A stretch of 64,000 nt of DNA from an uncultured Bacilli bacterium (GTDB lineage Bacteria; Bacillota_I; Bacilli_A; RF39; UBA660), in the NCBI GenBank assembly GCA_947589735.1, contig CANQCR010000003.1:37324-101323 (forward strand), given 5' to 3'. Under the pieces are notes generated by a model. The model was not told where the DNA came from. It saw only the letters and a program-made list of their open reading frames with translations, and ran no database searches. A program made the translations under genes and the position numbers. How positions within the stretch are numbered: the first letter of the stretch is position 1; each line of letters begins with the position of its first letter. Below, in pieces: positions 3,208 through 25,967 of this stretch.

Positions 3208-3341
3208 TTTATCTTTTCCTTAATTTTATTATCAACTTGGACAATTCTACATTGCGTCATTTCTGGTTTTAACTCTTTTAAATATATTTTTGATTGCAAA
3301 TCTTTTTTATCAGTTTTTTTTAGTAACGATTTAATACCCAT
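3204..3341 (-). CDS. Unannotated 45-aa ORF (MGIKSLLKKTDKKDLQSKIYLKELKPEMTQCRIVQVDNKIKEKIK). Candidate precursor peptide or small partner of the rSAM enzymes.
   Basis: An AGGAG motif sits 9 nt upstream of the ATG. The start overlaps the end of the B12-rSAM gene by 11 nt. The stop TGA overlaps the ATG of the next rSAM gene (ATGA). Confidence 0.5.
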   Translation of the reverse strand: MGIKSLLKKTDKKDLQSKIYLKELKPEMTQCRIVQVDNKIKEKIK

Positions 3342-4971
3342 TTTTCGCATCTCCTTTATAATTTAAGCTATAATATTTTCTATCTAAATACATATATTCT
3401 GAACGATATAATATTTTCAAGCGAGTATTTGCAAATTGCTTTATTTTTTTAATATTATTAAATTTATTAATAATAGACATATATTTATAGTAATTATCAT
3501 TTTTAGTTCTATAAATCAAATTCAAGTCTTGTTCTTCATTTAAGCAACTTAAATCAACCAATTTTGAGTTTCGCATATAATTAAATATGCTTAAGCCAAA
3601 AGTATCTAAATACTTAAATTTTCTAATAAATCTTAATGTTTTTCTAATATTTAAAATATTTTCCGTTGGATATCCAATCATAAATGTTGCTGATACGGAG
3701 ATTCCTGAATTATAAAAAATTTTCATGGTTTTTTTAGCAATATTCAAATCGATTCCTTTATTCATATCTCGCAATATTTTTTTATTATAAGACTCTACCC
3801 CAAACGATATTTCTCTACACCCGCTATTATATAAAATATTCGCGAATTTTCTATCTATATACTTGCTATCAATTCTAGTCTCGACCATCCATTTTATGTT
3901 AATGTCATTATCTATTAAATATGTAGCTAATTGCATTAAAATATCTGCTGGGATACATTCATCAACAAAATATACCGCTTCAATATGTTCTCTATTATAT
4001 AATTTTTTTAAATATGCAAATATTTTATTGATATCATATGTATGATAGCCGTTATAGTAATAGTATCTAGAGCAAAACATACATTTTGAATGATAACACC
4101 CATAGTTTAAAGTAAGTGGAACTAACTTTAAGTTTGATAAATAATTTTCTAAATTCAAATCACTAAAATCAGGCACATATTTATCTTTATAAAAGCAATC
4201 TTGCTGTTTATTAATCTTATATATAATTTTATTCTCATTTCTATAAATAACATTGTCTATATTTGATACTTTCTTATTTTGAAAGATTTTAATCGTTTCT
4301 ACAACATTATTATAGTTTCCGAATAAAACTATCCCATCTATATAAGAACACTTTTCCATTAGTTCTTTTAAATTTTTATTTATGTGTGTAATATAGTCTC
4401 CACCTAAGATAATTTTAATACTACTATTTTTAGATTTTAAATACCTTGAAAATCTAATAGCGTAGCTTAATTGAAAAGGATATTGAACACTTAAATAAAC
4501 AATATCGTTGTCATTTAAATCATGAGTATTTTTTAGAACCTTATCAAATATGCTATTTTCTTCACTAAAAGCTAATTCTATAATGTCATCAACTGTAAGA
4601 ATCTTTTTAGAAAAATCTATTCCTCTTCTTTCCCATTTTATCCCATAATGTCGGCCCATTATTTCTAAATATTTATGTATTTGTTCATTAGCTTCGATAA
4701 TCTTTAGGGTATCAATTTCCCTATCTTGCATTTGCTTTACAGCTTTTTCAATATTATCTACGATATTTTTTTCTTTTTCATTTAATGAATTATAATATTG
4801 TAAACACATCTCTTTAATATAATTATTTTTAAAACAGGTTTTCAAAAATCTTGATGTTAAATCATATTGTTTAGATTTTATTTTACATTCTTTCAAATAG
4901 CCTTTCAATAAAGGAACACTTATTTGTGGCATATTAAAGGCTGTCCCAGGTAATGTATATAAATAAAGCAT
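3331..4971 (-). CDS. B12-binding-domain radical SAM protein (class B rSAM, probable methyltransferase)
   Basis: An N-terminal cobalamin-binding-like domain and a Cys motif CYHSKCMFC inside an rSAM core. Confidence 0.7.
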   Translation of the reverse strand: MLYLYTLPGTAFNMPQISVPLLKGYLKECKIKSKQYDLTSRFLKTCFKNNYIKEMCLQYYNSLNEKEKNIVDNIEKAVKQMQDREIDTLKIIEANEQIHKYLEIMGRHYGIKWERRGIDFSKKILTVDDIIELAFSEENSIFDKVLKNTHDLNDNDIVYLSVQYPFQLSYAIRFSRYLKSKNSSIKIILGGDYITHINKNLKELMEKCSYIDGIVLFGNYNNVVETIKIFQNKKVSNIDNVIYRNENKIIYKINKQQDCFYKDKYVPDFSDLNLENYLSNLKLVPLTLNYGCYHSKCMFCSRYYYYNGYHTYDINKIFAYLKKLYNREHIEAVYFVDECIPADILMQLATYLIDNDINIKWMVETRIDSKYIDRKFANILYNSGCREISFGVESYNKKILRDMNKGIDLNIAKKTMKIFYNSGISVSATFMIGYPTENILNIRKTLRFIRKFKYLDTFGLSIFNYMRNSKLVDLSCLNEEQDLNLIYRTKNDNYYKYMSIINKFNNIKKIKQFANTRLKILYRSEYMYLDRKYYSLNYKGDAKNGY

Positions 4972-5954
4972 TATAGAACTATTTCCCCGATACGTTTAAT
5001 AACTTCTTGAGAAAAAATTTCATTATTTACCCAAATTTTAATGAATGGGACAACTTCATCAAATTTTTGGATACCGGCTAAATCGCTTAAACTATCATAT
5101 ATTTTATTCATTAATTTATTATCATCAAAGATTATAGAAATAAAGTTGGCACCAGATTTAATAATTTTTATACCTTTTATGTCTTTAAAAGCATTATATA
5201 TTAAGTCTCTATTAGCTTTAATATATTCTCTAGTATCAACAAATGCTTTTAGTATTTTTTTATCATTTAATAAAGATACAAAGAAATTTTCAGAATAAGA
5301 AGTAACTGAATGTGGTGGGATAATGGTATTTCTTAGGCCTTCTATTTTTTTAGTTGTTACCATATAGCCTGTCCTATAACCGGAAGCTAAAAACTTTTTT
5401 GAAAATGATCTAAATATTATAACCCTATCATTTTCTAAGCAAATATCTATCATTCCTCTTTCATCATCTGAATAATCAATATATGCTTCATCAATAATCA
5501 AAGTTCCTTTATATATATTCAATATTTCATTTATTTGCTTTTTTGTAAATAACTCACCGCTAAACCACCTTGGTGAAGATATACATAATAAATCCTTATT
5601 ACTTGACTTAACTCTTTTTAAATTATTAATAAAATCTTCCGTATGAATTCCTTGTACAAATATTATTTTTTTATCATTTAATAATGCTGTCCTTTTATAT
5701 AGAGCAAATTCTATATCTGGTAATATAATATTTTTCCAATCCTTTAATCCAACTATTGCATTAATAAATTGACTAATACCAGCACCAACATATATATAGT
5801 CTTTTTTTACATTTATGTAATTTGAAATTGCCTTAACAAGAGGATCTTCTAGAGGATATGCTAAATTATAGTTAAAATCCCCGTTGGCGTTTTCTTTAAA
5901 GTGTTTTATTTCCCATTTCCTTAATAATTTATTATTTTGCCATACTGATGACAT
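4971..5954 (-). CDS. Class I/II PLP-dependent aminotransferase/decarboxylase family (HisC/CobD-like)
   Basis: IDEAY and RSFSKKFLASGYRTGY motifs with the PLP lysine. The 327-aa length is typical of CobD-like members. Confidence 0.75.
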   Translation of the reverse strand: MSSVWQNNKLLRKWEIKHFKENANGDFNYNLAYPLEDPLVKAISNYINVKKDYIYVGAGISQFINAIVGLKDWKNIILPDIEFALYKRTALLNDKKIIFVQGIHTEDFINNLKRVKSSNKDLLCISSPRWFSGELFTKKQINEILNIYKGTLIIDEAYIDYSDDERGMIDICLENDRVIIFRSFSKKFLASGYRTGYMVTTKKIEGLRNTIIPPHSVTSYSENFFVSLLNDKKILKAFVDTREYIKANRDLIYNAFKDIKGIKIIKSGANFISIIFDDNKLMNKIYDSLSDLAGIQKFDEVVPFIKIWVNNEIFSQEVIKRIGEIVL

Positions 5955-6138: not shown

Positions 6139-6528
6139 TTATTTTTTTATATAAACAGATATAACGTATAAATCCATACCATCAGCATTTTTATCATAGA
6201 TAACATTATCAATAATAGGAAGCATATGATAATAATTGTTTTTATCCCAGCAAAATACAATATATGAATCATTATTCAAATTCAAATCTTTAATCATAAC
6301 ATCTTTATCAAAATCAACATTAAAAATATTATTATCTTCCATATATTTTTCAAATACCGGTATATCATTAAATGAAGAACAATTTAATTCTTTTGCAACT
6401 TCACATAAGTCATTATAAACATCTTCATATTCTTTATTTAAAATCTTACACAAACTTCTTATTACGCAATTACTTTTACCGTTTTTATCTGATATACAAA
6501 ATTCTTTAAATATCATCTTAATCTCCAA
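6139..6528 (-). CDS. Hypothetical protein
   Basis: A 129-aa ORF within the run of minus-strand genes. Confidence 0.5.
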   Translation of the reverse strand: MEIKMIFKEFCISDKNGKSNCVIRSLCKILNKEYEDVYNDLCEVAKELNCSSFNDIPVFEKYMEDNNIFNVDFDKDVMIKDLNLNNDSYIVFCWDKNNYYHMLPIIDNVIYDKNADGMDLYVISVYIKK

Positions 6529-7006
6529 TCTTTTTTATTTTTGTATACATTCTTGAATGATATCCATTTTTATCATAAAACTTAATCGCATTTTCATTAT
6601 AAGCAAATACATCTACTAAAATATATTCACAACCTAGTGATTTGAAATATTCTTCCATCTTATTCATAAGCATATTACCTATACCCTTACTTCTTACATT
6701 TTTAGAAACTATTAATTCCGTTATTTCTCCTCTTTTCGGACATTTATAATCGAGATAATCATATTCATCATATGGAAAAATACATCCCATAATTAATCCT
6801 ACTGCTCTATCATTTTCAATTGCTATATAACATTTACCATTATTATTTTTAACTTTCTCTAAATCTAAAATTGCCATTTTATCTCTATATTCTGGATGTA
6901 GTTGATCTAAATTATCTTTATCAATAGATAAAATATACTCTTCAAGTTCAACTAACAAGTCTTTAACATCTTCCAAATATTTATCTTCGTATTCTATTAT
7001 TTTCAT
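6518..7006 (-). CDS. GNAT family N-acetyltransferase
   Basis: Acetyl-CoA-binding motif RSKGIGNMLM. Confidence 0.75.
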   Translation of the reverse strand: MKIIEYEDKYLEDVKDLLVELEEYILSIDKDNLDQLHPEYRDKMAILDLEKVKNNNGKCYIAIENDRAVGLIMGCIFPYDEYDYLDYKCPKRGEITELIVSKNVRSKGIGNMLMNKMEEYFKSLGCEYILVDVFAYNENAIKFYDKNGYHSRMYTKIKKIGD

Positions 7007-7604
7007 TATTAAAATAATACTCCTTAGTTAAACCATATTTAGAAAAAGTTAATATTCCATCATAAAAAGTATAAGGTGATTCTTTTACTACTTCACCAGT
7101 TTTTTCAAATCCTAGTTTTTCAAATATTCTACAAGATCCTATATTATCTTTTACAGCGCCAGAAGAAATACCATTTATTTCTACATCTTTAAACATATAA
7201 TCAATCATTGCTTTAGTAGCTTCGGTTGCATATCCTTTCCCTTGGTAAATAGGATATATATACCAACCCACATCACGAATGGTAATATCCTCTCCATTTT
7301 CCTGAGCAGATATCTGACCAATTACTTCTTCATAACCACTATTCGTATATTCCGGCTTCAAAAATACGCTCCATACAAATACATCATTATTATCTGCTTT
7401 TTCTACTTTAGATTTATAAAACTTTTCTTGATTTTCCCAAGTCCAGTGACTTGGATTATTTGCATATTTTTTCGCACTTGTTAGATACCATTTATTTACT
7501 TCTGGTATCATTAATATCTCCCACAATCTTTTTTGTTCTTCCATTTTAGAACTTCTTAATATTAATCTTTCCGTTTCTATTGTTTTACTTCCCATTAAAT
7601 TCAT
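6981..7604 (-). CDS. GNAT family N-acetyltransferase (RimJ/RimL-like)
   Basis: QGKGYATEA motif and RimL-like architecture. Confidence 0.75.
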   Translation of the reverse strand: MNLMGSKTIETERLILRSSKMEEQKRLWEILMIPEVNKWYLTSAKKYANNPSHWTWENQEKFYKSKVEKADNNDVFVWSVFLKPEYTNSGYEEVIGQISAQENGEDITIRDVGWYIYPIYQGKGYATEATKAMIDYMFKDVEINGISSGAVKDNIGSCRIFEKLGFEKTGEVVKESPYTFYDGILTFSKYGLTKEYYFNNENNRIRR

Positions 7605-7622
7605 AATATCAAACCCTTTTAT

Positions 7623-8378
7623 CTATACTCTATCATAACCCCACCAATCAGGAATTAATTCTTCTAGTCTTACTATTTCTTTCGTATTAATGTTTTTACA
7701 TATTTCAATATCTTTACTCTTTTTAGATAGTTGCATCAGATATTCTCTACATGCTCCACAAGGTAAACAAACATTTCCTTTTGAATCAATACAAACTAGT
7801 TTTATAATCTCATTTTCACCATTTGTAATCATATTAGCAATAGCATTCCGCTCACCACACATACCAAGTGTTGATGCCGTATCAATGCATACACCTGTGT
7901 AAATATTATGATTTTTAGTAAGTATTGCTGATCCAACTTGCCCTGCACTAATCATCCCTGATACTTCTCTTGGATTTCTAATATTCTTTGCCTTTTCATA
8001 TAATTCATCCCAAACAGTGTTTTCACTATATAAATATTCTATATGAATTGCATATACACCATTTTTCTCAATAGCTTCTTGATATCCATCTGGCGCACTT
8101 ACATTTCTAATTGCTTCTTCTTTATCTTTGGTAGAGGAAGTTGTATATCGTATGCCTTCTAAAGTGAATAATTCTTCTAAAGAATTATAATGATTTACTT
8201 CTTTAACTTTAACATAAAATACACCTAAATTATTACTAGTAAATTCTATAATATCATTTTCTTTTAATTTACTATAATCATACTCGCTATTTTCTTTTTT
8301 TACTCTTATTTCTACTCTCTTTGTATTATTCTTTATAGCTAAAGCTTCACAATCACTAATATTTAATTTCATTATCAT
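7623..8378 (-). CDS. ASCH-domain / cytidine-deoxycytidylate deaminase-like fusion protein
   Basis: An N-terminal ASCH-like region; C-terminal zinc motifs (MCGERNAI ... PCGACRE) typical of CDA and blasticidin-S deaminase folds. Confidence 0.65.
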   Translation of the reverse strand: MIMKLNISDCEALAIKNNTKRVEIRVKKENSEYDYSKLKENDIIEFTSNNLGVFYVKVKEVNHYNSLEELFTLEGIRYTTSSTKDKEEAIRNVSAPDGYQEAIEKNGVYAIHIEYLYSENTVWDELYEKAKNIRNPREVSGMISAGQVGSAILTKNHNIYTGVCIDTASTLGMCGERNAIANMITNGENEIIKLVCIDSKGNVCLPCGACREYLMQLSKKSKDIEICKNINTKEIVRLEELIPDWWGYDRV

Positions 8379-8446
8379 TTTAATATCCTCCTAACAAAAA
8401 AATTCTGCATAATGCAAAATTAATTTTATAAGTTAAAAGAATATTC

Positions 8447-8512
8447 CTAAAAGTTTAATAAATTAGGAGTAGTGATTAATTTTGCATTATTAACAACTTG
8501 TAAATTTTTCAT
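8447..8512 (-). CDS. 21-aa leader uORF (MKNLQVVNNAKLITTPNLLNF)
   Basis: Strong SD GAAAGGAGGG 9 nt upstream of the ATG. The ORF overlaps one arm of a 16-bp inverted repeat upstream of the deaminase gene. Confidence 0.4.
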   Translation of the reverse strand: MKNLQVVNNAKLITTPNLLNF

Positions 8513-8678
8513 CTTAATCACCCTCCTTTCTTTGAATAATTTACACTAATAATATATCATAATTTTATAATTTTTTAAATTACCTTTGCTTTTTCTTTAA
8601 CGATTAAAATAAAACTTGTTATATAAACGTTACTTTTCTAATATCATTTTGATATTTTAATTTTAAAAGTATCATTTA

Positions 8679-9947
8679 TTAGATAGTAAGGTGAATAGCG
8701 GTAACAGACACGCCCTGGCCAAAAGCCGTCGTAACTGTTTCTAGATCCCCAATCTTATCAACATCAAAAAGGATTCCGTTTTCTTCCCCATTTAGTTCAA
8801 TACCTGTTTTAACCCCAAAACCAAAATCTTTAATATATTTAAATAATTTTTCTTTACCTAATTTATAACCGATACTGACAAATCCCGTATTACATGAGTT
8901 TTCGACAACTTCTAAATAGGTTTGATGGCCATGGCCACCATGTTTCCAACAATGAATTGTCGCTCCACTTACTTTCACACTACCCGTATCATAATAGTAG
9001 TCTTTATCTAAATCAATTAAGTTTTCTTCTAAAGCCGAAGCTAACGATATAATCTTAAATGTTGATCCCGGTTCATAAGTCATCCAAATGGGAAGATTAC
9101 GATTAATCTCTTCGGTCGCATAATCTTGATAATGCAATGGGGAAAAAGTCGGACGAGATGCGATAGCTAATACTTCGCCGGTGTTAGGATCCATTATTAT
9201 GCCCCAAGCCCCATCGGGATTATACATATTAATAGCGTTATCTAATTCTCTTTCTAAAGCTTCTTGCAACTTATAGTTAATGGTTAGGGTAATATTCATT
9301 CCCGCCTGGGGTTGTTCATATTTTTGACTTAACTTTAATTTTTCACCCTTCGCATCACTATAATATTTAATCGCACCATAGCTTCCCGTTAAATAATCAT
9401 CATAGATGAGTTCTAAACCGCTTAAACCTTGATTATCTATTCCAACAAAACCAAGTGTATTAGCTAAAAGCGTATCATAAGGATAATCCCTCTTCGCTTC
9501 TTTAACAAGATAGACGCCATCTAATTTTAAAGCATTTATCTTATCCGCTACTAAATTACTAAGTCGTCTTCCCTCCGGGTGAACCCGTTCGATAGATGTC
9601 TTTTTACTTGTGTGCGCTAACATATCATCATATGGAACTTCTAAAATGTTAGCTAAAGCTGAAGCCGTCTTTTCCTTATCTTTAATTTGATTAGGAATCA
9701 ATACTAAGGATGTCGTCGTTACATTACCTGCTAAAGTAACCCCTTCCCGGTCATAGATATTTCCTCGGTTAGCTTCTAAAGGTAGATTACGACTCCATAA
9801 GTCATTCGCATATTTATTTAATTTATCATAACTAAATACTTGGATATAAAAAACTTTGCCAATGATTATTATAAACATCATTATAATTATGACTAAAACA
9901 AAGCGCATTCTTTCGTTCATTTTTTTAATAAACATATCATCACCCAT
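8679..9947 (-). pseudogene. C-terminally truncated class B penicillin-binding protein (FtsI/PBP2B-like)
   Basis: N-terminal TM segment, dimerisation domain, and the STFK and SCN motifs are present. The ORF stops before the KTG motif. Only about 300 bp of non-coding sequence follows. Confidence 0.6.
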
Positions 9948-9959: not shown

Positions 9960-10003
9960 ATTAAAGATGTTTATTAATAAAGAAAAGAGAAATATTTCTC
10001 TTT
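9960..10003 (-). terminator. Putative terminator after the HAD/GT-C gene
   Basis: AAGAGAAAT/ATTTCTCTT palindrome followed by a T-rich run. Confidence 0.35.
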
Positions 10004-13000
10004 TTAGGCGGTTATAAGTAAGAATAATTCAGCTGCCGATAAGACATTGGTTGGTTCAATTTTATTTTTAATAAAATAAGTACCCAAGAATGTTAATTTA
10101 GCATAATCAGCCCTAGTATCAGCTTTCTTCCAAGATAATGGATATAACTGATTACTCAATGTCATACTAGCTTTATCACCTAATAAGTGACGCTGTTCGT
10201 AAGCTAAAGATGGGTCATTATCGTTAAATACGATGACACGTAATTTACTTACATTTTCATCAGTATACCAAAAAGCATTAGTATGATTATCTGTCTTTTT
10301 ATAGTCGTAGGCTAGATCAAGATTAAATTGTGATAGACCGAATTTTAACCATAATGTCTGATAATCTGGGTAATCAATAGCTTTAGAATTAGTAAGATAC
10401 TTACCTAGTTTATCTTCAACCTTAATAGTATCAGCTTCTTTGATAATCTTTTTAACCATATCATTATCTTTATCCGTAACTAATGATAATAGATATAATA
10501 ATTCACCTAGATTAGTTACATCTTTATCTTTCGTATCATATATATCATCAATAGATAAAATCCAATCTTTGATTATATCAATGTTATCTGTCTTCTTAAG
10601 AACCATTGCGGCCACGGCGGCATCTTTATACTGTGGTTTATCATAAGTAAACACATTAGGATAAATAATACCATCTTTAATATTAATTAATATCTCTTGA
10701 TATAATACATTTAATAATTCACTATACTTATAATCATCAAAACGTGGTAACGAAATATCCTCTTCGGTATTAGGAACTATATCATCATCATTATCACTAA
10801 TGATGTGAACAGCTTTTTCATCTTCCACAATTTTATAGAATTTATTATCCTTTGTCTTTATTAAAACAGTATATAGATTAGGAATAATAAGTTGTTCTAA
10901 AACATCAAAGCGCCTATAAACTTTTTCTGTGGCAATATCTCTTAAAACACCATTTTGGTAAATGTATTTATCACGGTTACCCATTCCATAAAGTAAAAAT
11001 TTCTCATTATTAAATCGCTTATTAATAACAATATTTTTTTCGCCGACAAAAGCCTTATACTGATCTTTATACTTTTGATAAGCTTCAACTTCATCTTCAT
11101 AGTAGGCACTTAAACTCTTAGATGGTGAGGGGATACTTAATTTACCATATATATTATTACTTGCGCGGTAATTATTAAAAGTCTCAAAACGAATAAATAG
11201 TATTGATGTAATAAAGATGCATAGGCACCCTACTATCAAAAGAATGGTTTTATGGTGACGAATATACTTTTTAATTAAAAGTCCAGCTGAAAAGATAAGA
11301 ACAATTATAGCAATAATAAAAGGTATAAAAATGATAAGTTCTTTAATAATCGCTAAATGGCTAGAAATAAACTCCATCTTAAAGTGTTTATTTAAAGCGA
11401 CAAGCAATTGTTTAAAGCCAATAACATTACTAAAAAGTTCAAACAAGAAGAAAAATATTAAAAAGATGCTCGTAATCTTATATTGACGACGATTATTAAG
11501 GGCAAAGAGTAAAATCACTAAGTATATGATATTTTCTGAATAAAGAAAAGCATTATCATTTCCATATAAAATGTGTAAAAAGCTCATACCCAGTAAACTT
11601 ACTAAAAGCCCGAGATTTAAAATCTTATTATGCTTAAAATTAATAATGATAAGACATATTAAAAGTCCATAAAAAAGAGTAATGATAATAGTTTTAATAT
11701 AATTTGGTTTAACAAATCCTAAAATAGTCTTAGAGTCAGGGTTATTTTCATCATAATACGTCTCTTTAATCTTACTAGCAGCAATACCGTTCATATAGAT
11801 ATCATTATAAACATTTTGTGCTTTCGCAAGTGTTATATCGTATGAAACATATTCCCCTTCAGCGGCTTGACTATTATCCATAACACCTCTAACAATATTT
11901 TTAGGCGTTATCCAGATTAGTTCTTGGACAATCGTCAATACAATAATAGCGAGAATAGTCAGTAAATGAATCGTAATAAACTTCTTAAAGTTAACTTTTT
12001 TACCAAGCCATAAAACTAATGTACCAACGCCAAAGACAGTATAATTAGTTAGTAATATACCCGCTGTTAAAATGCCAAGTGCGATATAGCGGTATAACTT
12101 AAAAGTCCGGTAATGGTTAAAATCTAAAAAGATGTTATACCAAAGAAGAATAAATGATAAAGCTGATAAAGAATATATTTCAAAAGTTGTATTAAAAACT
12201 AAAGAACTAAAAGAAAAACCATATATCAATGTCAGAACAAAATTAACAATTTTATTTTGACTAATAAGACATAAAGATTGGTATAAGTATTTAATACAAA
12301 GCCCACCGATCAAAGACATAAAAAGGCCAAGCGCAAAAACACCATTATGCGTAAATCCTTGAAGTAATAAAATAAGGGGTTGGAAGAGTATTATAAGTGG
12401 ATGAACACCAATTCGGGAATTATGGTCATAAATAATGGTTGAAAAGTCATTATAAACTCGACCTGTATCTGATTGAAAAAGAAAGTCCCAATTACTGGTT
12501 AGGTCATGATTATAATTAATTAACATATCTAAAACAAAATAGATAATGAAAAAAATTATTCCTAGACAGGTTCCCGTTTTCTTAACCCGGTCATGATAAA
12601 GTTTATTAACGTCATACGCTAATATTTCTCCATTAGAAACCATATAGGCATTATTAGATGCTGAAGCGATAAAGCGGTCGGTATAAGAATCAGAATAAGA
12701 ATTATTAATACTAAACTTTTTATAATTTTTCTTAAGATATTCTAATTTATTCTCACCTCGACAATTATCATCTAACCATTCTCCAGTTTTAATTGAAGCC
12801 GTGGATGCAATAACTGTTTTAACACCTAATTTATGTCCAATTGGTTCGATTAAAAAGTTTGGTGAAGCACTTAAAATTACTGCCTGTTGGTCATTTGCAA
12901 GCAATTTTTTTAATTCCGGATAAATCTTTTTTTCATGGGTCTGCCAAAACTCATCAACTAGAGCTTCGGGATCATCAAAATAACGTAAAAAAGAAAAGTA

Positions 13001-13216
13001 AACTGTTTTAAACTTTTCTTTTTTTATAAAATGGAAAAGATATAAAACCATATATAAGAATATCTTAGGAAACAGTAAGATATTCTTTTTTCTTTTTTGT
13101 AATGCAAAAAGGAAAAAATCAACGGCACTATCACCATTGTAAATCGTGCCATCAAAATCATATACATTAATTTTATTATTAGATTGCATATAAAACGACC
13201 CCCATATATAAGCCAT
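10004..13216 (-). CDS. Fusion of a HAD-family phosphatase (N-terminal) with a large polytopic GT-C-like membrane glycosyltransferase carrying a C-terminal extracytoplasmic domain
   Basis: DFDGT HAD motif; more than 12 predicted TM helices; a roughly 370-aa soluble C-terminus; a 38-nt overlap with the upstream UbiA-family gene. Confidence 0.6.
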   Translation of the reverse strand: MAYIWGSFYMQSNNKINVYDFDGTIYNGDSAVDFFLFALQKRKKNILLFPKIFLYMVLYLFHFIKKEKFKTVYFSFLRYFDDPEALVDEFWQTHEKKIYPELKKLLANDQQAVILSASPNFLIEPIGHKLGVKTVIASTASIKTGEWLDDNCRGENKLEYLKKNYKKFSINNSYSDSYTDRFIASASNNAYMVSNGEILAYDVNKLYHDRVKKTGTCLGIIFFIIYFVLDMLINYNHDLTSNWDFLFQSDTGRVYNDFSTIIYDHNSRIGVHPLIILFQPLILLLQGFTHNGVFALGLFMSLIGGLCIKYLYQSLCLISQNKIVNFVLTLIYGFSFSSLVFNTTFEIYSLSALSFILLWYNIFLDFNHYRTFKLYRYIALGILTAGILLTNYTVFGVGTLVLWLGKKVNFKKFITIHLLTILAIIVLTIVQELIWITPKNIVRGVMDNSQAAEGEYVSYDITLAKAQNVYNDIYMNGIAASKIKETYYDENNPDSKTILGFVKPNYIKTIIITLFYGLLICLIIINFKHNKILNLGLLVSLLGMSFLHILYGNDNAFLYSENIIYLVILLFALNNRRQYKITSIFLIFFFLFELFSNVIGFKQLLVALNKHFKMEFISSHLAIIKELIIFIPFIIAIIVLIFSAGLLIKKYIRHHKTILLIVGCLCIFITSILFIRFETFNNYRASNNIYGKLSIPSPSKSLSAYYEDEVEAYQKYKDQYKAFVGEKNIVINKRFNNEKFLLYGMGNRDKYIYQNGVLRDIATEKVYRRFDVLEQLIIPNLYTVLIKTKDNKFYKIVEDEKAVHIISDNDDDIVPNTEEDISLPRFDDYKYSELLNVLYQEILINIKDGIIYPNVFTYDKPQYKDAAVAAMVLKKTDNIDIIKDWILSIDDIYDTKDKDVTNLGELLYLLSLVTDKDNDMVKKIIKEADTIKVEDKLGKYLTNSKAIDYPDYQTLWLKFGLSQFNLDLAYDYKKTDNHTNAFWYTDENVSKLRVIVFNDNDPSLAYEQRHLLGDKASMTLSNQLYPLSWKKADTRADYAKLTFLGTYFIKNKIEPTNVLSAAELFLLITA

Positions 13217-14042
13217 AAACGAGAATACTAAAAATTAAAACTTTATCATTAATAACAACATCCACAGGATCTCCAAAAGAATCACCATCAATAACTAATG
13301 AATAACGCATTAAAACGAAAACGACAATTAAAATACTAGCTAAAAGATAAGGTGAATTAACCGCATTAGCCCATAAAGAATAAAAAACGATGGTTAAGGT
13401 TAAAAAGATATTAAGAAAATTATTTAAATAATCTTTATTATAATATTTTAAAACTTCCCGGGATTCACTACCATTTTTAAGATACTCATTTCTTCTTTTA
13501 CCTAAAGCAGCATAGAAGGAAAAAGATAGAACTGTTAAATATAACCAATTAGATATTTCAACACCAATAGCTACCCCACCATAAATGACACGAATAATAA
13601 AACCAATCGCTAAAATAAAGATATCAACAATAGGAATATGCTTTAATTTTAAAGAATATAAGATGTTTATTAAAAGATAGCCATATAATAAAATAAAAGT
13701 ATAGACTAAAGAATAGTTATCATAAAAAAGATATGGAATAAAGTTAATAACAGAAGCAGTTATAAAGAGTATTATTATAAAGGTAAAAGCACTTTTTACC
13801 TTTATAATACCACTAGCTAGTGGTCGATCTTTTTTTATGGGATGCTTCTTATCTTTTTCTATATCACATATATCGTTAATAATATAGACAATGGAACACA
13901 TCAAAGAAAAAGAAATCAAGTTTAATATATTGGTTCCTAACATTTCAAAGTTTAAAATATTGCCACTAAAAATAATAGCCGCAAATATTAAAAAATTTTT
14001 CATATAGTGTTTAACACGCATTAATTTAAGATAATTTTTCAT
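13179..14042 (-). CDS. UbiA prenyltransferase family, decaprenyl-phosphate phosphoribosyltransferase (DPPR synthase)-like
   Basis: NDICDIEKDKK and RPLASG motifs, with 8-9 TM helices. Confidence 0.7.
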   Translation of the reverse strand: MKNYLKLMRVKHYMKNFLIFAAIIFSGNILNFEMLGTNILNLISFSLMCSIVYIINDICDIEKDKKHPIKKDRPLASGIIKVKSAFTFIIILFITASVINFIPYLFYDNYSLVYTFILLYGYLLINILYSLKLKHIPIVDIFILAIGFIIRVIYGGVAIGVEISNWLYLTVLSFSFYAALGKRRNEYLKNGSESREVLKYYNKDYLNNFLNIFLTLTIVFYSLWANAVNSPYLLASILIVVFVLMRYSLVIDGDSFGDPVDVVINDKVLIFSILVYGLYMGVVLYAI

Positions 14043-14149
14043 GATTCACCTACAATCGCCATAAACATCAATATTATAACATTATTTACTGTATTAAGCA
14101 ATTAAAACCATCATCAAGGAAATCCTAATTATCGCTATTATTTTATTAA

Positions 14150-14185
14150 TTAAAAGTGACGACAATAAAAAGAAGACTTATTTGT
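14150..14185 (-). terminator. Terminator of the histidine kinase gene
   Basis: AGAAGAC-N6-GTCTTCT hairpin followed by TTTTTATT. The hairpin includes the stop codon. Confidence 0.5.
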
Positions 14186-16106
14186 CTTCTTTCTCTTTTA
14201 ATGGTGTATCTAAATCATATATTTCACTTGGAAGTGGTTCAAATGATACTTCTCTAGTAACATCAATATCAACAAGAGTTTTAGATAAAACTCGTTCAAG
14301 TTCTTTCTTATCAATCGGTTTAGATAGATAATCAACAAAACCCGCTTCAAGATATTTTTCTTTCATACCCTCTAGCGCATTAGCCGTAAGAACAACGACT
14401 GGAGTATTAAAATGATCTAATTTTTTTAATTCTTGTAAAGTCTCTGTTCCAGATATTTTAGGCATCATATCATCCATTAAAATTAAATCATAATTATCCT
14501 CTTTAACTTTTAAAAGACAATCGGTGCCACTTTCACATTCAGTAACATCAACATGATATTGTTCTAAAAGACGAACTGCTACCTTTAGGTTAATACGATT
14601 ATCATCAACGACCAATACCTTTTTATCACTAACATCAAGAATCTTAACGGGTTCAATTACCCTTTTCATTTTCTTTTCAGTATTAGTGTGAATTTCTTGT
14701 TTCAAATAAACGGTAAACTTAGATCCTTCACCATATTTACTTTGAACGATGACTTTACCTCCCATCATTTCAGCAAGTCTTTTGGTAATAGCAAGACCTA
14801 ATCCCGTTCCTTCTAAAGTCGTATTACGATCTTCTTCTAAACGTTCAAACTTATCGAAGATTTTATCAATCTTATCCGGTTTAATACCCCGCCCTGTATC
14901 TTCAACAGAAATAACAATGGTACTTTCATTATTACGATTAATACAGCTAACTTCAATAGCGATATATCCTTGCTCCGTATATTTAATAGCGTTAGTTAAA
15001 ATATTAGAAACAATTTGTCTAATTTTACCGATATCGCCATATAAGTTATATGGTAAGTCTTCAGCAAAATTAACTTTTAACTGAATTGGTTTTTCGCCAA
15101 TCCGAGGTTGGATTAATTTAATTAACTCATTTAATTCATTTTTTAGGTTATATTCAATATTAACAAACTCAACCTTATCGGCTTCAATTTTGGAAATATC
15201 CAAAATACCATTAACGATTTCTAAAAGATTTTGGGATGCGATAACAATATCTTGAGCATCCTTTTTCGCACTTTCTAGTGTTTCATCAGTTAGGATACAT
15301 TCACTAAAGCCCACAATCGCATTTAAAGGTGTCCTTATTTCATGTGACATATTAGATAAGAAATCCGTTTTAGCTTTATTAGCTTTCTCAGCTTTATCAC
15401 GAGCTAAAGATACTTGTTCTAACATTTTAACATCAGGGTTTTCAATGGTAAAATACATAAGATAACATAGAATAGCTAAGATAAAATCATAGATAATTAA
15501 TTCTGGAAAGTAGATAAGAACAAAATAGAAAAATACTAATAAAGCTAAAATCAAAAAGATAGGAAGATACCGTTTATCTAAATGTTTAATATTTAAAAGA
15601 GCAATAAACATCGACATAACTAATAAAATTAACATGACCAACAATCCAAAATCAATAAGTGGTCCTTTAACATTTGTCACACTACCTACTTCATATATTT
15701 CAACGGATAAAAAGCAAGTAATAATAAATATTAAAGTATTAAAGATAATAAGACATATATTAATCACATTAAACTTATTTTTAAGTTTAGGAAAAGTAAT
15801 TATTAAGGTATAGGCAAACAAAGAACTCAAAACAATGGAAAAACCAAGTAGCATAAAACGGTTCATCCAAGTAAATAACGATACGTAAAAGCCCGTCGTA
15901 ATCGTCGCAAAAGGATTTATCGCACATATTGAATGCGCAACAAAATCAATAAATATTTCAAAAATAGACGCTATTAAAATAACACTATAAAATCTATTTT
16001 CAATAAGATCCGCTTTTTCTTTATGAAAATAAACAAATGTTAAAAGAGCCATAAATACAAATGACACTAATGGTATTTCAAACTCAACAGATAGATTATT
16101 TACCAT
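14178..16106 (-). CDS. Hybrid sensor histidine kinase with a multi-TM sensor, HisKA, HATPase and a C-terminal receiver domain
   Basis: H-box SHEIRTPLNAI; G-boxes; a receiver with DDNRINL...ILMDDMMP. Confidence 0.85.
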   Translation of the reverse strand: MVNNLSVEFEIPLVSFVFMALLTFVYFHKEKADLIENRFYSVILIASIFEIFIDFVAHSICAINPFATITTGFYVSLFTWMNRFMLLGFSIVLSSLFAYTLIITFPKLKNKFNVINICLIIFNTLIFIITCFLSVEIYEVGSVTNVKGPLIDFGLLVMLILLVMSMFIALLNIKHLDKRYLPIFLILALLVFFYFVLIYFPELIIYDFILAILCYLMYFTIENPDVKMLEQVSLARDKAEKANKAKTDFLSNMSHEIRTPLNAIVGFSECILTDETLESAKKDAQDIVIASQNLLEIVNGILDISKIEADKVEFVNIEYNLKNELNELIKLIQPRIGEKPIQLKVNFAEDLPYNLYGDIGKIRQIVSNILTNAIKYTEQGYIAIEVSCINRNNESTIVISVEDTGRGIKPDKIDKIFDKFERLEEDRNTTLEGTGLGLAITKRLAEMMGGKVIVQSKYGEGSKFTVYLKQEIHTNTEKKMKRVIEPVKILDVSDKKVLVVDDNRINLKVAVRLLEQYHVDVTECESGTDCLLKVKEDNYDLILMDDMMPKISGTETLQELKKLDHFNTPVVVLTANALEGMKEKYLEAGFVDYLSKPIDKKELERVLSKTLVDIDVTREVSFEPLPSEIYDLDTPLKEKEDK

Positions 16107-16149: not shown

Positions 16150-16185
16150 AAATAATAAAGGTTATTTGCCTTTATTATTTTGCCA
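16150..16185 (-). terminator. Terminator overlapping the stop codon of the acyltransferase gene
   Basis: AATAAAGG-N7-CCTTTATT hairpin followed on the minus strand by ATTTTTTAGTTTTTT. Confidence 0.5.
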
Positions 16186-17163
16186 ATGGGTTTTAATATA
16201 TTTTTTAAAATTATATTTTTCATCTTCAATTCGTCGCCGAACAATAGGATACATAATACCGATATTATCTTTAGTTAAAACGACCTTATCAAAACTCTTT
16301 CTAACATCATCAGCATATGTAATTCTCTTGTCGCGATAAGTCGATAATTCCTCATCCCAAACATCACGGGTCCATTTAACTTGTAAATATTCATCAACCC
16401 TATCTTGCATAAACTGGGTATGATAATCACTAGCTAAGCTATCGCGCATCAAAGGAGTACTATATTTTTCAATCATTGTATACTGCATTGTAGCCATTTG
16501 ATCTCTTAGTAACGATAATGCTTCATCCTTTTCTAAAGAGCCAATATCTAGTGGTTCACCTACCATAATATGAACTTCTTTAAGTTCTGGTGCATAAAAA
16601 GTAGCCATAGGAACAACTTTCTTACCCGTTTCCTTAGCCAAGATATATGGGCCTGCAAAAAGCGGTTGCACTAGTAAGTTTTCCGTATTATTTAAGCCTC
16701 CTTCGGGAAACATTAAAACACTTGTTCCACTTTCAAGAACGCGGATTTGCTTTAAAATAGAATCTTTGCGACTTTGTGGGTCTAATCTATTAACATAAAT
16801 CATTCCGTTTATCCAAGCAAAATAACTTTGTGGGTTATGTTCAATTTGATCAGTTGTACCTAATAAAATATAGGCATTGCGATCAATCGATGCCAAACTC
16901 GAAATAATATCCTCATCAAAATAATGCGTTGTTGCAAAAATATATGGTTCATCAGGATTCAAATTAGGGTATGAATCGATAACTAGTTTATTTTTTGCTG
17001 CCATTTTTAAAACAAGACGAACACCAGGATTAATATAGCGACGTAATTTTAGTCCTGTTTTAGTCGTAAAAGTATCAACATTTGAAAATTTTACTCTTCC
17101 TAATAAGATATTTTTAACTATCATACTCATTCCCCCCAATTTCATTATATCATAAATGAGCAA
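16162..17163 (-). CDS. Lysophospholipid/glycerol-phosphate acyltransferase family protein (LPLAT)
   Basis: HX4D motif (THYFDED) and FPEGG motif. Confidence 0.7.
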   Translation of the reverse strand: MLIYDIMKLGGMSMIVKNILLGRVKFSNVDTFTTKTGLKLRRYINPGVRLVLKMAAKNKLVIDSYPNLNPDEPYIFATTHYFDEDIISSLASIDRNAYILLGTTDQIEHNPQSYFAWINGMIYVNRLDPQSRKDSILKQIRVLESGTSVLMFPEGGLNNTENLLVQPLFAGPYILAKETGKKVVPMATFYAPELKEVHIMVGEPLDIGSLEKDEALSLLRDQMATMQYTMIEKYSTPLMRDSLASDYHTQFMQDRVDEYLQVKWTRDVWDEELSTYRDKRITYADDVRKSFDKVVLTKDNIGIMYPIVRRRIEDEKYNFKKYIKTHWQNNKGK

Positions 17164-17174
17164 GAAAAAAGATA

Positions 17175-17348
17175 CTAAATAGTATCTTCAGATTCGTCTT
17201 TAGCGAATAATCTAGATATTCCAAAGACAATTACAAGTGTCATCATTACGAGTAGAATCTTAATAAACATATCAGATGGTAAGAAAGAAATTATTTTATC
17301 TGTTATGTCGATTAGTGCTGTCTCAATTTGTAATGTTATCGCACCCAT
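17175..17348 (-). CDS. 57-aa small membrane protein (MGAITLQIETALIDITDKIISFLPSDMFIKILLVMMTLVIVFGISRLFAKDESEDTI)
   Basis: Strong SD AAGGAGG 6 nt before the ATG; one C-terminal TM helix; its own hairpin/T-tract terminator at 17160-17190. It is below the ORF-track length cutoff. Confidence 0.5.
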   Translation of the reverse strand: MGAITLQIETALIDITDKIISFLPSDMFIKILLVMMTLVIVFGISRLFAKDESEDTI

Positions 17349-17406
17349 ATAAGTCCTCCTTCATTTACCCTATCTATTCACATATTCATTATACCGCGGA
17401 TGAAAA

Positions 17407-18045
17407 TTAATTGTCAAATTTTGGTTGATTATCACTTTCCCCTTTATTTTCAAGGATTAAATCTAAAACAGCCTGATATAATTTTTCATTTGCTTTATCA
17501 AGTTGCATATTATCAACTTTAAAGGGCTTACCATAACGAATAGTAAGATTCTTACTTCGAAACTTATAATCACCGGTTATCCCAAAAGGAACGAGATAAG
17601 CGTTAGTCTTTTTAGCCATCGCCACCGCTCCATATTTAAAAGGTAATAGTATTTCATCCGTTTTATTTCTTGTTCCTTCCGGGAATAAACCGATAGCACC
17701 GTTATCTTTTAAGACGGATATGGCAAGCGCTTGCGCTACTTTATCGCCATGAGCCCGGTCGACACTAATACAACCGGTACCTTTAAAAAACCACGCTACC
17801 TTAGCATCATCAAAGTATTCTTTTTTAGCCATATAGTGAATACCACGCTTGGTAGCAACAATCGTAAGACACTGATCATACAAGTGTTTATGATTACCAA
17901 CGATAATAATAGGTCCATCTTTAGGAATATTTTCCTTACCAATTATTTTAGGACGATAATAAAGTTTAAAGATAGGTCCTAAAATAAAGCGACCAAAGCG
18001 ATATAAGAATGGAACTTTACTCGTCATCGCTAGCTCCGATATCAC
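17407..18045 (-). CDS. plsC: 1-acyl-sn-glycerol-3-phosphate acyltransferase
   Basis: NHKHLYD (HX4D) and FPEGTRN motifs. Confidence 0.75.
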   Translation of the reverse strand: MISELAMTSKVPFLYRFGRFILGPIFKLYYRPKIIGKENIPKDGPIIIVGNHKHLYDQCLTIVATKRGIHYMAKKEYFDDAKVAWFFKGTGCISVDRAHGDKVAQALAISVLKDNGAIGLFPEGTRNKTDEILLPFKYGAVAMAKKTNAYLVPFGITGDYKFRSKNLTIRYGKPFKVDNMQLDKANEKLYQAVLDLILENKGESDNQPKFDN

Positions 18046-19750
18046 TTTTTAACTTTTGAAAATCAACTTTACCAAGTTTTGTTTTCGGTAATTGTTTACG
18101 GAAGACAAACTCAGCCGGAATCATATACTTAGCTAGATTTTTCTGGCAATAACTTTTGATTTCTGAACGGACAAATAAGCCATGATAACCATCTTTTAAA
18201 ACGATAAAGGCTTTGGCAACCTCTTGCTTATAAGGATGGGGAATACCGATAACACTACACTGTAAAACAGCGGGATGAGATTCAATAACCTCTTCAATAT
18301 GGTTAGGATATACGTTATACCCACTCGTAATAATCATCCGTTTTTCTCTTCCCTTATAAAAGATAAAACCATCACTATCCATATAACCTAAATCACCGGT
18401 ATGAAGCCAAACATGGCCATCTTTATGAATTCTTAAAGCTGCATTTGTTTCTGCTTCATCATTTAAGTAGCCCATCATCAAGGCTTTACTATTAATAACA
18501 ATCTCCCCTACTTCACCATAAGGAACTGTCTTTAAAGTAGCAGGATTAATAATTTTAATATTGTTACTAGCAAGAGGAATCCCTACCGATCCTTTTTTAT
18601 TGATATCATCACAGGCAAGGGTTACCGCGGCTAAGGCTTCTGATAAGCCATAACCTTGCGTAATGCGAGCTTTAGAATTATGTTCTTCAAAGTATTTATT
18701 GATACTATCTTCCAAGCCTTCCGTGAGGATATCCCCACCACTAACAACATATTTTAAGAAAGATAAATCCAAATGTTTTTCGTTATTACATTTAATTAAA
18801 GCTTCATATAAAGTAGGAACCCCTAATACACAAGTTGGTCTTGTCTTTTTAAATAACGTATCAAACTTTTTCGAATCAAATTGGGGAATTAAGATTGAAT
18901 AACAACCTAAAGCAAATGGTGTATGCATTAAAACACTTAAACCAAAACCATGGAAATTAGGCATAATAGCCAGACAGCAATCTCCCGCTTGTAAGCGTTT
19001 CATTTGAATTTGTTCTTGACGGGCCGCTAAAATGAAAGCTCGGTTTTGAATAACGACATTTTTAGGTTTGCCACTTGTCCCACCACTATGCAAAATAACA
19101 GCTGGAGTATTTTTCCCGTAGCGTACCCTTTTAGGTGGTTTGGTATTACGTCCTAATTTCATAAAATGTTTAAAACTAATAAATAAATCATCTTTAGGAT
19201 ATTTTTTATACTTACCTAATTGTTTTACTTTATAACCTATTTTCATAAAAATATTTAAGGAGTCAGCGGGCGATGCGAAAATAACTTTCTTTACCCTAGT
19301 CTCTTTGATGGTATGTTCAATTTTGTTATAAAACATATCGGCCATTACTAAATATTTACTATGGGTAGAGTTCAAGCTTTCTTTAATTTCTTCTTCAGCT
19401 GATAATGGGTGAAGCATATTACCGATTGCTCCTAATTTATTTAAAGCGTATAAAGCAATTAAGGCTTCTGGAATATTAGGTAAACATATCGTTACAATAT
19501 CCCCTTTTTTAATACCTAATGTGTAAAAAGATAGGCTAGCCTTATCAATTAATTTGATAAACTCTTTATAAGTCGTCTTTTTACCAAAGTATTCAATAGC
19601 TGGATACGAAGGATATTTTAAATAGCTATTATGAACATCATCATACATACTGATATTAGGTATTTTAAGATGTAGCTCTTCTTCCGTATAATACTTAGCC
19701 CAAGGAGCTGGAATGGGCTTCTTCGTTCTTAAAAGATTAAAGATTGACAT
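18017..19750 (-). CDS. AMP-dependent long-chain fatty acid--CoA/ACP ligase
   Basis: AMP-binding motif TSGTSGKPK and GYGLSE. Confidence 0.8.
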   Translation of the reverse strand: MSIFNLLRTKKPIPAPWAKYYTEEELHLKIPNISMYDDVHNSYLKYPSYPAIEYFGKKTTYKEFIKLIDKASLSFYTLGIKKGDIVTICLPNIPEALIALYALNKLGAIGNMLHPLSAEEEIKESLNSTHSKYLVMADMFYNKIEHTIKETRVKKVIFASPADSLNIFMKIGYKVKQLGKYKKYPKDDLFISFKHFMKLGRNTKPPKRVRYGKNTPAVILHSGGTSGKPKNVVIQNRAFILAARQEQIQMKRLQAGDCCLAIMPNFHGFGLSVLMHTPFALGCYSILIPQFDSKKFDTLFKKTRPTCVLGVPTLYEALIKCNNEKHLDLSFLKYVVSGGDILTEGLEDSINKYFEEHNSKARITQGYGLSEALAAVTLACDDINKKGSVGIPLASNNIKIINPATLKTVPYGEVGEIVINSKALMMGYLNDEAETNAALRIHKDGHVWLHTGDLGYMDSDGFIFYKGREKRMIITSGYNVYPNHIEEVIESHPAVLQCSVIGIPHPYKQEVAKAFIVLKDGYHGLFVRSEIKSYCQKNLAKYMIPAEFVFRKQLPKTKLGKVDFQKLKSDIGASDDE

Positions 19751-20339: not shown

Positions 20340-20392
20340 ACCATTTTTTTATTTCTTTGACAAAAAGATAGCTATTTAATTATATGTGATAA

Positions 20393-20426
20393 CTTTAAAA
20401 AAAGAAAAAAGCGATTAATATCGCTT
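20393..20426 (-). terminator. Rho-independent terminator
   Basis: AAGCGAT-taat-ATCGCTT hairpin followed by TTTTCTTTTTTT. Confidence 0.65.
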
Positions 20427-22712: not shown

Positions 22713-22714
22713 AG

Positions 22715-25925: not shown

Positions 25926-25940
25926 AATATCCTCCTTTAT

Positions 25941-25967
25941 ATGAAAAAACAAGTCCTAGGACTTGTT
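25941..25967 (-). terminator. Intrinsic terminator/attenuator between tRNA-Asn and gatC
   Basis: AACAAGTCC-TA-GGACTTGTT hairpin followed by a T6 run, immediately upstream of the gatC SD. Confidence 0.55.

Follow-up and report, generated by a model that had tools for sequence, protein, structure and literature searches.

A stretch of 64,000 nt from an uncultured Bacilli bacterium (RF39, UBA660; GenBank assembly GCA_947589735.1, contig CANQCR010000003.1), here called the window and numbered from its first letter, carries two overlapping genes on the minus strand. One is a ubiA-family gene; the other fuses a haloacid dehalogenase (HAD)-type phosphatase to a glycosyltransferase C (GT-C)-like membrane domain and a C-terminal extracytoplasmic domain. 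Domain identities, folds, conserved residues and linkage across many genomes define the pair. With its two genes and four domains, it probably forms a module that glycosylates a cell-envelope polymer outside the membrane with a pentofuranose, most likely ribofuranose. Pathways of this type have been published before, with candidates in Gram-positive bacteria among them (Kelly et al. 2024, PMC11127046). New in the window are the phosphatase–GT-C fusion itself, a GT-C family that appears related to DUF6080 and is set apart from GT136 by proxy tests, an uncharacterised C-terminal domain with conserved residues lost in this copy, and the lack of a flippase or epimerase gene alongside the pair within 64 kb.

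The ubiA-family gene is located at 13179..14042 (−, 287 aa) and the longest open reading frame (ORF) of the fusion gene at 10004..13216 (−, 1070 aa), both as given in an earlier interpretation made from the DNA letters and their translations (the sequence-only reading). A chance ORF can be dismissed, because more than 1000 uninterrupted codons at ~28 % G+C, the composition of the window, is far beyond chance; no ORF of at least 80 aa is found on the plus strand within the region. The fusion has stood, its length of 1070 aa has not. In an alignment all 16 homologues begin at codon 10 (MQSNNK...), P0001, a database protein of 100 % identity, is 1061 aa long and has the same first Met, other assemblies annotate the start at the same ATG, and a GGGGG Shine–Dalgarno-like run is located 9 nt upstream of it. 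The start is therefore placed, as most likely, at ATG 13189, with the gene extending over 10004..13189 (−) and encoding the HAD, GT-C and C-terminal domains in a predicted product of 1061 aa plus the stop codon. The nine-codon 5′ extension of the longest ORF (13190..13216, −), missing in all 16 homologues and overlapping model residues 1–12 with a predicted local distance difference test score (pLDDT) below 50, is probably untranslated. Given this start, the overlap of the two genes is the 11 nt ATGCAATCTAA (13179..13189, −, read directly), which holds the ubiA stop codon and the fusion gene start, and the 38 nt originally cited belong to the longest ORF. Translational coupling of the two genes nevertheless remains likely, because overlaps of 8–11 nt recur at the equivalent junction in related loci (L001, L003, L005, L006, L009, L013 and L025).

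The region upstream of ubiA (14043..14177, −) contains a hairpin (14169..14192) at the stop codon of the preceding histidine-kinase gene, an extended −10-like element (TGTTATAAT, 14081..14073) and an AGGTGA ribosome-binding site. The promoter-like element is weak, because such matches occur at chance frequency; a consensus promoter scan found 30 sites versus 32 expected by chance in AT-rich DNA. A weak, AT-rich terminator-like site directly follows the stop codon of the fusion gene (9976..10003, −), formed by the hairpin AAAGAGAA-ATAT-TTCTCTTT and a T-rich tail, with too few G–C pairs for listing in the hairpin scan. From these signals, the pair looks like a bicistronic unit between two hairpins.

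By its sequence matches, the 287-aa protein is clearly of the decaprenyl-phosphate phosphoribosyltransferase (DPPRS) type. Pfam UbiA (PF01040) is matched at E 5e-25, and the top NCBIfam matches are three DPPRS models (E 6e-55, 3e-52 and 6.5e-44), followed by PRK08238, a HAD–UbiA fusion model. Archaeal, heme-o, chlorophyll and 4-hydroxybenzoate prenyltransferase models reach 1e-12 or worse, the last three each worse than 1e-6. Among structures, Mycobacterium tuberculosis DPPRS (PDB 8j8j) is matched at E 1e-36 over residues 5–276, with the next family at 1e-4, and the alignment pairs the N56-D57-xx-D60-xxx-D64, RPLASG and GKRxxE segments. The cytoplasmic loop motif (N56-D57-xx-D60-xxx-D64 ... 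R73-P-L-A-S-G; 13809..13877, −), read from the translation, matches the M. tuberculosis DPPRS segment NDVRDVEADREHPTKRFRPIAAG residue for residue, and the equivalent N/D residues are needed for activity of ORF15 of Citrobacter youngae (PMC11127046). More than 3,700 database proteins match the UbiA protein at E ≤1e-20, of which the few named ones are DPPRS, while a tblastn search of phage records returned one unannotated contig at 30 % identity. A role as a MenA/UbiA quinone prenyltransferase, the grouping against which the sequence-only reading had asked its DPPR-synthase-like homologue to be checked, is ruled out by the NCBIfam and PDB scores, which side with DPPRS.

The N-terminal domain of the large protein (12602..13189, −) is assigned to the HAD-IB phosphatases by Pfam, TIGR01488 and Foldseek. 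PF12710 (HAD) is matched at E 4e-18 over residues 18–180, TIGR01488 scores 49.4 bits against a cutoff of 45, and the Foldseek matches of this part are 3fvv and SerB phosphatases. Motif I, D-F-D-G-T, with the nucleophile Asp11 (1061-aa numbering), is located at 13145..13159 (−), and its columns are invariant in alignment A2; like the NDxxDxxxD and RPLASG motifs of the UbiA protein, it was correctly noted at the outset and can be read directly from the sequence. The domain is predicted to be a cytoplasmic polyprenyl-P-ribose-5-phosphate phosphatase. The same HAD subfamily also occurs as stand-alone proteins of ~187 aa.

The membrane domain (11117..12601, −) has ~13 transmembrane (TM) helices according to hydropathy and model helices, in line with the GT-C-like domain of more than 12 helices first proposed. 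The AlphaFold2 (AF2) model of the large protein, built from a 17-sequence alignment, has a mean pLDDT of 83.7. The best Foldseek match of the membrane part in the PDB is ALG12 (9s6t; E 3.6e-4, 416 columns, target-normalised TM-score 0.52), and others are Pmt4, Pmt1/Pmt2, ALG9, DPY19, STT3, ArnT, AftB, EmbA/B and PIG-U. HAD matches aside, all PDB matches at E ≤0.5 are GT-C enzymes or PIG-U, and the first transporters appear at E ~0.6 with a probability of ≤0.06; thus the comparison of GT-C with transporter folds that had been suggested as a check is led by GT-C enzymes. As a rough guide to topology, the Lys/Arg-rich loops would place the HAD domain in the cytoplasm and the C-terminal domain outside.

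The loop after TM1 reads F-Q-S-D-T-G-R-V-Y-N-D ... H..R...H-P-L, its first segment being located at 12446..12478 (−). Across 81 wider-family sequences of 18–34 % identity, D250, R253, H272 and Q431 (longest-ORF numbering) are invariant, and D257, H265, R268, E346, N391, Y551 and G552 are at least 90 % conserved. The first-outer-loop residues D250, R253 and D257 (D241, R244 and D248 in 1061-aa numbering) are also invariant in alignment A1. In GT-C enzymes the catalytic Asp/Glu usually sits just after TM1, and the Asp region of this loop is a candidate catalytic site by its conservation. An acidic residue at this position is described as catalytic for GT-C enzymes in the literature on pentofuranose systems (PMC11127046).

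No Pfam family matches the membrane domain even at E 10, and YfhO (PF09586) and PMT (PF02366/PF13231) are accordingly among those it does not match. A phmmer search of 1.84 billion cluster representatives with this domain found 327 relatives, 132 of them at E ≤1e-10. Of the 81 relatives scanned (phmmer E ≤1e-9), 33 match DUF6080 (PF19558; best E 2.7e-16), a transitive homology only; one gives a weak PMT_2 match (E 0.002), and none matches YfhO or EpsG, the latter being the CDD label of the GT136 protein ORF12. Taken with the modelled fold, the domain is likely to belong to a GT-C family that is a divergent relative of DUF6080. A literature search found no description of a HAD–GT-C fusion, of its GT-C family or of DUF6080.

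The C-terminal domain (10007..11116, −; ~370 aa) is as large as had been claimed, and the positive-inside pattern would put it outside the cell. Modelled alone with AF2 it folds confidently (pLDDT 92, pTM 0.93), with a long N-terminal helix, a beta-rich subdomain and then a helical subdomain of ~240 aa. Foldseek against the PDB gave nothing significant (best E 0.24), the helical part yielding very weak alpha/alpha-toroid matches (1sqc, A2ML1; E >0.5), and no Pfam match and no PDB sequence match by profile were found. The domain as modelled is not recognisable as a carbohydrate-binding module (CBM). For the helical part a six-hairpin glycosidase-like barrel was considered; WYRD and (S/T)W(S/H)A(S/A)E in this part are reminiscent of GH15, but the lead found no support in the tests made.

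Stand-alone homologues of this domain (~386 aa, 31–39 % identity) were found by profile search, for example in metagenome-assembled genomes (MAGs) of Thermoguttaceae and Dongiaceae, and carry N-terminal signal or lipoprotein-like sequences. Examples are encoded at 8001..9155 of L081 and at 8001..9182 of L082 and L083 (P0039, P0033; also P0037 and P0026). Motifs common to them are FGMGxRxK, PWYRDAA, EPDNLG, TD, YQTKWLKFGL, YPYL, YPL(S/T)WE and PHxWHAAE. These forms occur in Planctomycetes, Alphaproteobacteria and others with all conserved motifs intact, and apparently represent a widespread, unannotated extracytoplasmic domain family. Their genomic contexts are mixed and partly sugar-related; together with the signal-bearing homologues, these contexts support, in general terms only, an extracytoplasmic, carbohydrate-related role for the domain.

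Full-length fusions are rare, with 17 matches in a 5.8-billion-protein index, and their carriers are MAGs recovered from the guts of rabbits, ruminants and humans and assigned to uncultured Bacilli, Clostridia and 'Tenericutes'. The synteny of histidine kinase, UbiA and fusion gene is found with identical proteins in several independent metagenome assemblies. For a wider comparison, seeded with an alignment of 12 closer sequences, domains were mapped over 80 loci and checked with Pfam. UbiA adjoins HAD and/or GT-C in most of these loci, with HAD as its nearly constant neighbour, and the domains are combined in several ways. HAD, GT-C and C-terminal domain are fused in the window, L001, L003–L005 and L007; L021 and L025 have HAD–GT-C fusions without the C-terminal domain; L002 has a HAD–UbiA fusion; and HAD–GtrA fusions are present in L075 (Pfam-confirmed) and about a dozen others. 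Additionally, HAD is fused to other membrane proteins of 700–765 aa, one giving a weak PMT_2 match, and P0017 is a GtrA–GT-C–C-domain fusion encoded directly after a HAD–UbiA fusion. The repeated adjacency and the alternative fusions, including those with GtrA, fit the original view of HAD, UbiA and GT-C as one donor-and-transfer module, and neither of the outcomes named at the outset as refuting that view was obtained.

Among 127 ORFs flanking GT-C in 21 loci there are 26 GT2, 9 GT1, 7 O-antigen-ligase-like, 6 acyltransferase-3, 4 ABC-2 permease, 4 ABC ATPase and 2 LCP genes. At the P0004 locus the module belongs to a cluster of the teichoic-acid type, in which two TagF-like genes are accompanied by an IspD-like gene, epimerases, GT2 and GtrA. 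HAD–GtrA fusions of ~330–350 aa are common beside DPPRS-type genes in gut Bacillota, and one locus has a DUF6020–GtrA fusion beside UbiA (HAD–GtrA/DUF6020–GtrA loci: L075 9968..11029, L027 15925..16953, L069 9989..10990 and L035 5350..7494). The latter arrangement suggests that further unannotated GT-C-like families may use the same donor.

Because HAD–UbiA, HAD–GtrA, GtrA–GT-C and HAD–GT-C fusions recur, it can also be imagined that synthase, phosphatase, flippase and transferase form one membrane assembly. In such an assembly the flippase-less HAD–GT-C protein would couple dephosphorylation to translocation of polyprenyl-P-ribofuranose and serve as both flippase and transferase, and the outer domain, with its relatives among secreted proteins of Planctomycetes and Proteobacteria, would have a carbohydrate-active fold not recognised before. 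This extension is speculative and has a low probability.

The closest described counterpart is the three-component pentofuranose system of C. youngae O1/O2, consisting of ORF15 (PRP–PPPRS), ORF14 (MATE flippase) and ORF12, the GT-C enzyme that founded GT136 (Kelly et al., PNAS 2024, PMC11127046). The chemistry of ORF15 and ORF12 was shown biochemically. As described there, such systems combine a PRP(HAD)–PPPRS enzyme, in which PRP is the phosphoribose phosphatase, with a MATE or SMR flippase and a GT-C enzyme with a C-terminal CBM; the phosphatase is variably fused or separate, and candidate systems, one with a separate PRP, are listed in Gram-positive bacteria and a phage (PMC11127046). A PRP–GT-C fusion, the GT-C family of the window and its C-terminal domain are not described in that work. 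Like C. youngae, the window encodes a UbiA/DPPRS-type synthase predicted to use phosphoribosyl pyrophosphate (PRPP), a HAD 5-phosphatase and a GT-C protein with an extra C-terminal outer domain, and is predicted to use a polyprenyl-P-ribofuranose (Ribf) donor outside the membrane. Three of the four genetic criteria of the system (synthase, HAD and GT-C) thus have counterparts in the window, with the flippase not in view.

However, the phosphatase is fused to the synthase in C. youngae and to the GT-C domain in the window. ORF12 carries the CDD label EpsG, whereas the window GT-C domain has no EpsG-type Pfam match and has relatives in DUF6080. Likewise, GT136 has a beta-rich CBM, whereas the C-terminal domain of the window is part beta and part helical, without a structural or sequence match in the PDB. 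A dedicated MATE/SMR flippase in C. youngae contrasts with none linked in the window, where the pair is outside a glycan cluster. The EpsG and CBM tests for GT136 membership both failed; they are proxies only, the ORF12 sequence itself not having been compared.

The decaprenyl-phospho-arabinose pathway of mycobacteria and corynebacteria comprises UbiA/Rv3806c, Rv3807c, DprE1/E2, Rv3789 and the Emb/Aft GT-C enzymes. Its first enzyme is homologous to the UbiA protein of the window, with common NDxxDxxxD and RP(I/L)A(A/S)G motifs, and the steps of dephosphorylation, flipping and GT-C transfer are analogous. In contrast to the PAP2-type phosphatase Rv3807c and DprE1/E2 of mycobacteria, the window has a HAD-IB domain and no DprE1/E2 or PAP2 match. 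The lipid is presumably C55 in the window organism rather than C50, the GT-C domain resembles AftB and EmbA/B at the fold level only (E 0.1–0.5), and its role is predicted to be decoration, not polymerisation.

Hexose three-component systems are represented by GtrA/GtrB/Gtr* in enterobacteria and by CsbB/GtcA/YfhO in teichoic-acid glycosylation of Bacillus and Listeria (PMC5836110). Much as predicted for the window module, a lipid-phosphate-sugar is made inside, flipped, in these systems by the GtrA family, and used by a GT-C enzyme to decorate a wall polymer outside; several relatives of the window module have GtrA as a fusion partner or neighbour. The hexose systems differ in using a GT2 synthase with a UDP-sugar, whereas the window has a UbiA-type enzyme predicted to use PRPP, an extra phosphatase step and no YfhO/PMT match.

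A further relative, carried by a cultured organism, was found by tblastn with the HAD–UbiA protein of L002 (39 % identity) in the exopolysaccharide (EPS) cluster of Lactococcus cremoris F.2.7 plasmid pF27D. By annotation only, this module consists of a hypothetical 462-aa membrane protein, DPPRS, a HAD-IB phosphatase and GtrA. The membrane protein aligns with the window GT-C domain over 334 columns (hhalign E 9e-5, probability 59 %), across the SD...HPL...E...YG..LYS motifs. The UbiA and HAD subfamilies are the same in both modules; pF27D differs in having four separate genes, with GtrA and without the C-terminal domain, in an EPS cluster on a mobilisable plasmid. No experimental characterisation of the pF27D module was found in a literature search.

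The homology to M. tuberculosis DPPRS and to the C. youngae system, the latter proven biochemically, allows a mechanism to be proposed, all of it predicted: each enzymatic step, the lipid and the sugar, the acceptor and the topology in the membrane. At the cytoplasmic face, the UbiA-family enzyme would move ribose-5-phosphate from PRPP onto a polyprenyl phosphate, presumed to be undecaprenyl phosphate in a Firmicute. The cytoplasmic HAD-IB domain would then strip the 5-phosphate to give polyprenyl-P-ribofuranose, and a flippase encoded outside the window would translocate the lipid-linked sugar. The GT-C domain would pass the pentose to an outer acceptor by means of the first-loop D...R...D / H..R...HPL residues. 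The C-terminal outer domain would probably bind or process the acceptor glycan, a function that may be impaired in the window copy.

Several observations weigh against this interpretation. The pair is outside any glycan cluster, between a hybrid histidine kinase and a truncated penicillin-binding protein (PBP). No GtrA, MATE or other flippase candidate was found among the window ORFs, by Pfam scans that covered ORFs of at least 150 aa (no MATE or SMR match) and by a GtrA hidden Markov model built from the relatives, whose best match (E 0.003, 9.8 bits, per-domain E 0.011) was judged not credible. The UbiA protein scores under the NCBIfam equivalog cutoffs (NF008978, 186.4 versus 207; NF008977, 177.9 versus 234; NF008976, 150.5 versus 474), although NCBI labels close relatives as DPPRS even so. 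The Foldseek match of the membrane domain to GT-C structures is modest in both E value and TM-score. For the phosphatase, hhalign of the HAD family alignment against one Rhizobium HAD–UbiA protein was not significant (E 0.19), which is a weak single-sequence test; the one tie that the HAD domain appears to have with proteobacterial PRP domains is the contiguous tblastn alignment of the L002 HAD–UbiA fusion. The C-terminal domain of the window is altered at an unusual number of conserved positions, as detailed below. Finally, the roles proposed for the GT-C and C-terminal domain families are predictions for every member.

The sugar is taken to be ribofuranose because no epimerase genes are present within 64 kb. 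The window ORFs scanned gave no DprE1/E2-like, FAD_binding_4, FAD-oxidase, short-chain dehydrogenase/reductase (SDR), epimerase or PAP2 match, so that the absence of DprE1/E2-like genes asserted by the sequence-only reading holds for all ORFs of at least 150 aa. The same machinery could instead carry another sugar, if an epimerase or a DprE1/E2-like pair encoded elsewhere made a xylofuranose (Xylf) or arabinofuranose donor before export. Only 64 kb of the genome is visible, an NAD-dependent epimerase-family gene is located directly upstream of ubiA in L001, and DprE1/E2-like genes are present in the Rhizobium HAD–UbiA locus. Additionally, the C. youngae GT-C enzyme takes both Ribf and Xylf donors (PMC11127046). 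However, the window is without a FAD-oxidase, SDR or epimerase ORF, and in the described systems epimerase genes cluster with the module (PMC11127046), and a different sugar is unlikely.

The acceptor is predicted to be a polysaccharide or teichoic acid, and a protein acceptor, such as a pilin, an S-layer protein or another surface protein, is rather improbable. Precedents exist in TfpW, which glycosylates with arabinofuranose in Pseudomonas, and in the PMTs, which use mannose. Several of the top structural matches are protein O- or C-mannosyltransferases (Pmt1/2, Pmt4, DPY19), and the pair is located outside a polysaccharide cluster. However, fold likeness among GT-C families says nothing on the type of acceptor, and the relatives are flanked by GT2, GT1, ABC-2, LCP and TagF-type genes and, in Lactococcus, by EPS genes. 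Within the window, a fusion of GT2 with a TagF-like (Glyphos_transf) domain (878 aa) and a GT2 of 317 aa are encoded at 51649..55252 (+), on the strand opposite to the pair and ~38 kb away, in the segment of lowest G+C of the window (0.215). These look like genes for a polymer of the teichoic-acid type, so that the acceptor may be a polymer based on glycerol phosphate or ribitol phosphate.

The altered C-terminal domain raises the question of whether the pair is a decaying or reduced remnant, severed from a glycan cluster and no longer capable of complete acceptor glycosylation. The window copy is changed at 17 of the 87 columns with at least 90 % conservation in a set of 25 homologues of this domain, whereas relatives of 46–50 % identity are changed at only 3–5. 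Among the replacements are R→K, D→T, Y→H, Y→S, E→K, H→N and W→L, and the TD pair is lost. The truncation of the adjoining PBP gene within its transpeptidase domain and the lack of a linked flippase or glycan cluster point in the same direction. Against decay, neither frame is interrupted over its 287 or 1061 codons in AT-rich DNA, the locus has been recovered with identical proteins from several independent metagenomes, and few conserved columns are changed elsewhere: 3 of 55 in UbiA, 2 of 43 in the GT-C domain and, among 69 homologues, 0 of 34 in HAD, all changes being conservative. A remnant is therefore rather improbable.

That the membrane domain is a transporter or a polymerase/ligase, with HAD and UbiA serving an unrelated lipid pathway, is very improbable: the domain has no Pfam or CAZy-type sequence match and its TM-scores to GT-C structures are only ~0.5, but the transporters rank below more than a dozen GT-C enzymes, no O-antigen ligase/polymerase structure is among the 50 Foldseek matches listed, the first outer loop has invariant acidic and basic residues as in GT-C enzymes, and GtrA fusions and DPPRS-type neighbours recur among the relatives.

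The surroundings of the pair are varied. Directly downstream is the truncated PBP gene (8679..9947, −), which ends halfway through the transpeptidase domain (Pfam profile positions 4–167 of 299); SxxK and SxN are present, with no KTG region. It is followed by ~300 nt without an ORF of at least 25 aa on the PBP strand (8379..8678), after which G+C falls to ~0.25, and the PBP gene looks truncated at the edge of an inserted segment. Beyond this, two GNAT acetyltransferases and a deaminase-domain protein (6518..8378, same strand) are located just upstream of three consecutive radical-SAM genes, two with SPASM, and a class I/II aminotransferase (798..5954, −; ~25 % G+C), a region that may be a peptide-maturation or cofactor cluster. 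Peptidoglycan genes in the window are those for PBP and for MurD-like, YceG and NlpC/P60 proteins.

On the other side, upstream of the histidine kinase, genes at 16162..21276 (−) seem to form a cluster for membrane-lipid synthesis beside the glycosylation pair; they encode three 1-acyl-glycerol-phosphate-type acyltransferases, an AMP-binding (acyl-CoA/AMP ligase-like) enzyme and a CDP-alcohol phosphatidyltransferase. At 21333..26383 (−), two tRNA-Asn(GTT) genes come after a T-box leader (RF00230, 121.8 bits) and precede gatC, gatA, gatB and a class II Asp/Asn-type tRNA synthetase; this appears to be a T-box-controlled transamidation operon carrying its own tRNA genes. Two ORFs of 721 and 397 aa (26467..29836, −) have weak AbiEi_4 antitoxin-type N-terminal matches and no other family. 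An ORF of 1802 aa (39266..44674, −) contains sigma-70 regions 1.2, 2, 3 and 4 at residues ~200–460, the ~1300 further residues giving only faint helix-turn-helix-type matches, and is an unusually long sigma-factor fusion.

The module extends the pathway described in 2024 to uncultured gut Firmicutes and does not overturn current understanding. The alternative fusions of HAD, UbiA, GtrA and GT-C amount to Rosetta-stone genomic evidence that the four-step pathway exists in Gram-positive bacteria. They also give a likely function to a DUF6080-related GT-C family that lacks annotation, and flag a widespread outer domain of ~370 aa that has no assigned family and no structural relative. Almost nothing is known of the surface glycans of uncultured gut Bacillota; the module predicts that some of these organisms decorate their wall polymers with pentofuranose, probably ribofuranose, which would influence how phages and the host immune system recognise them.

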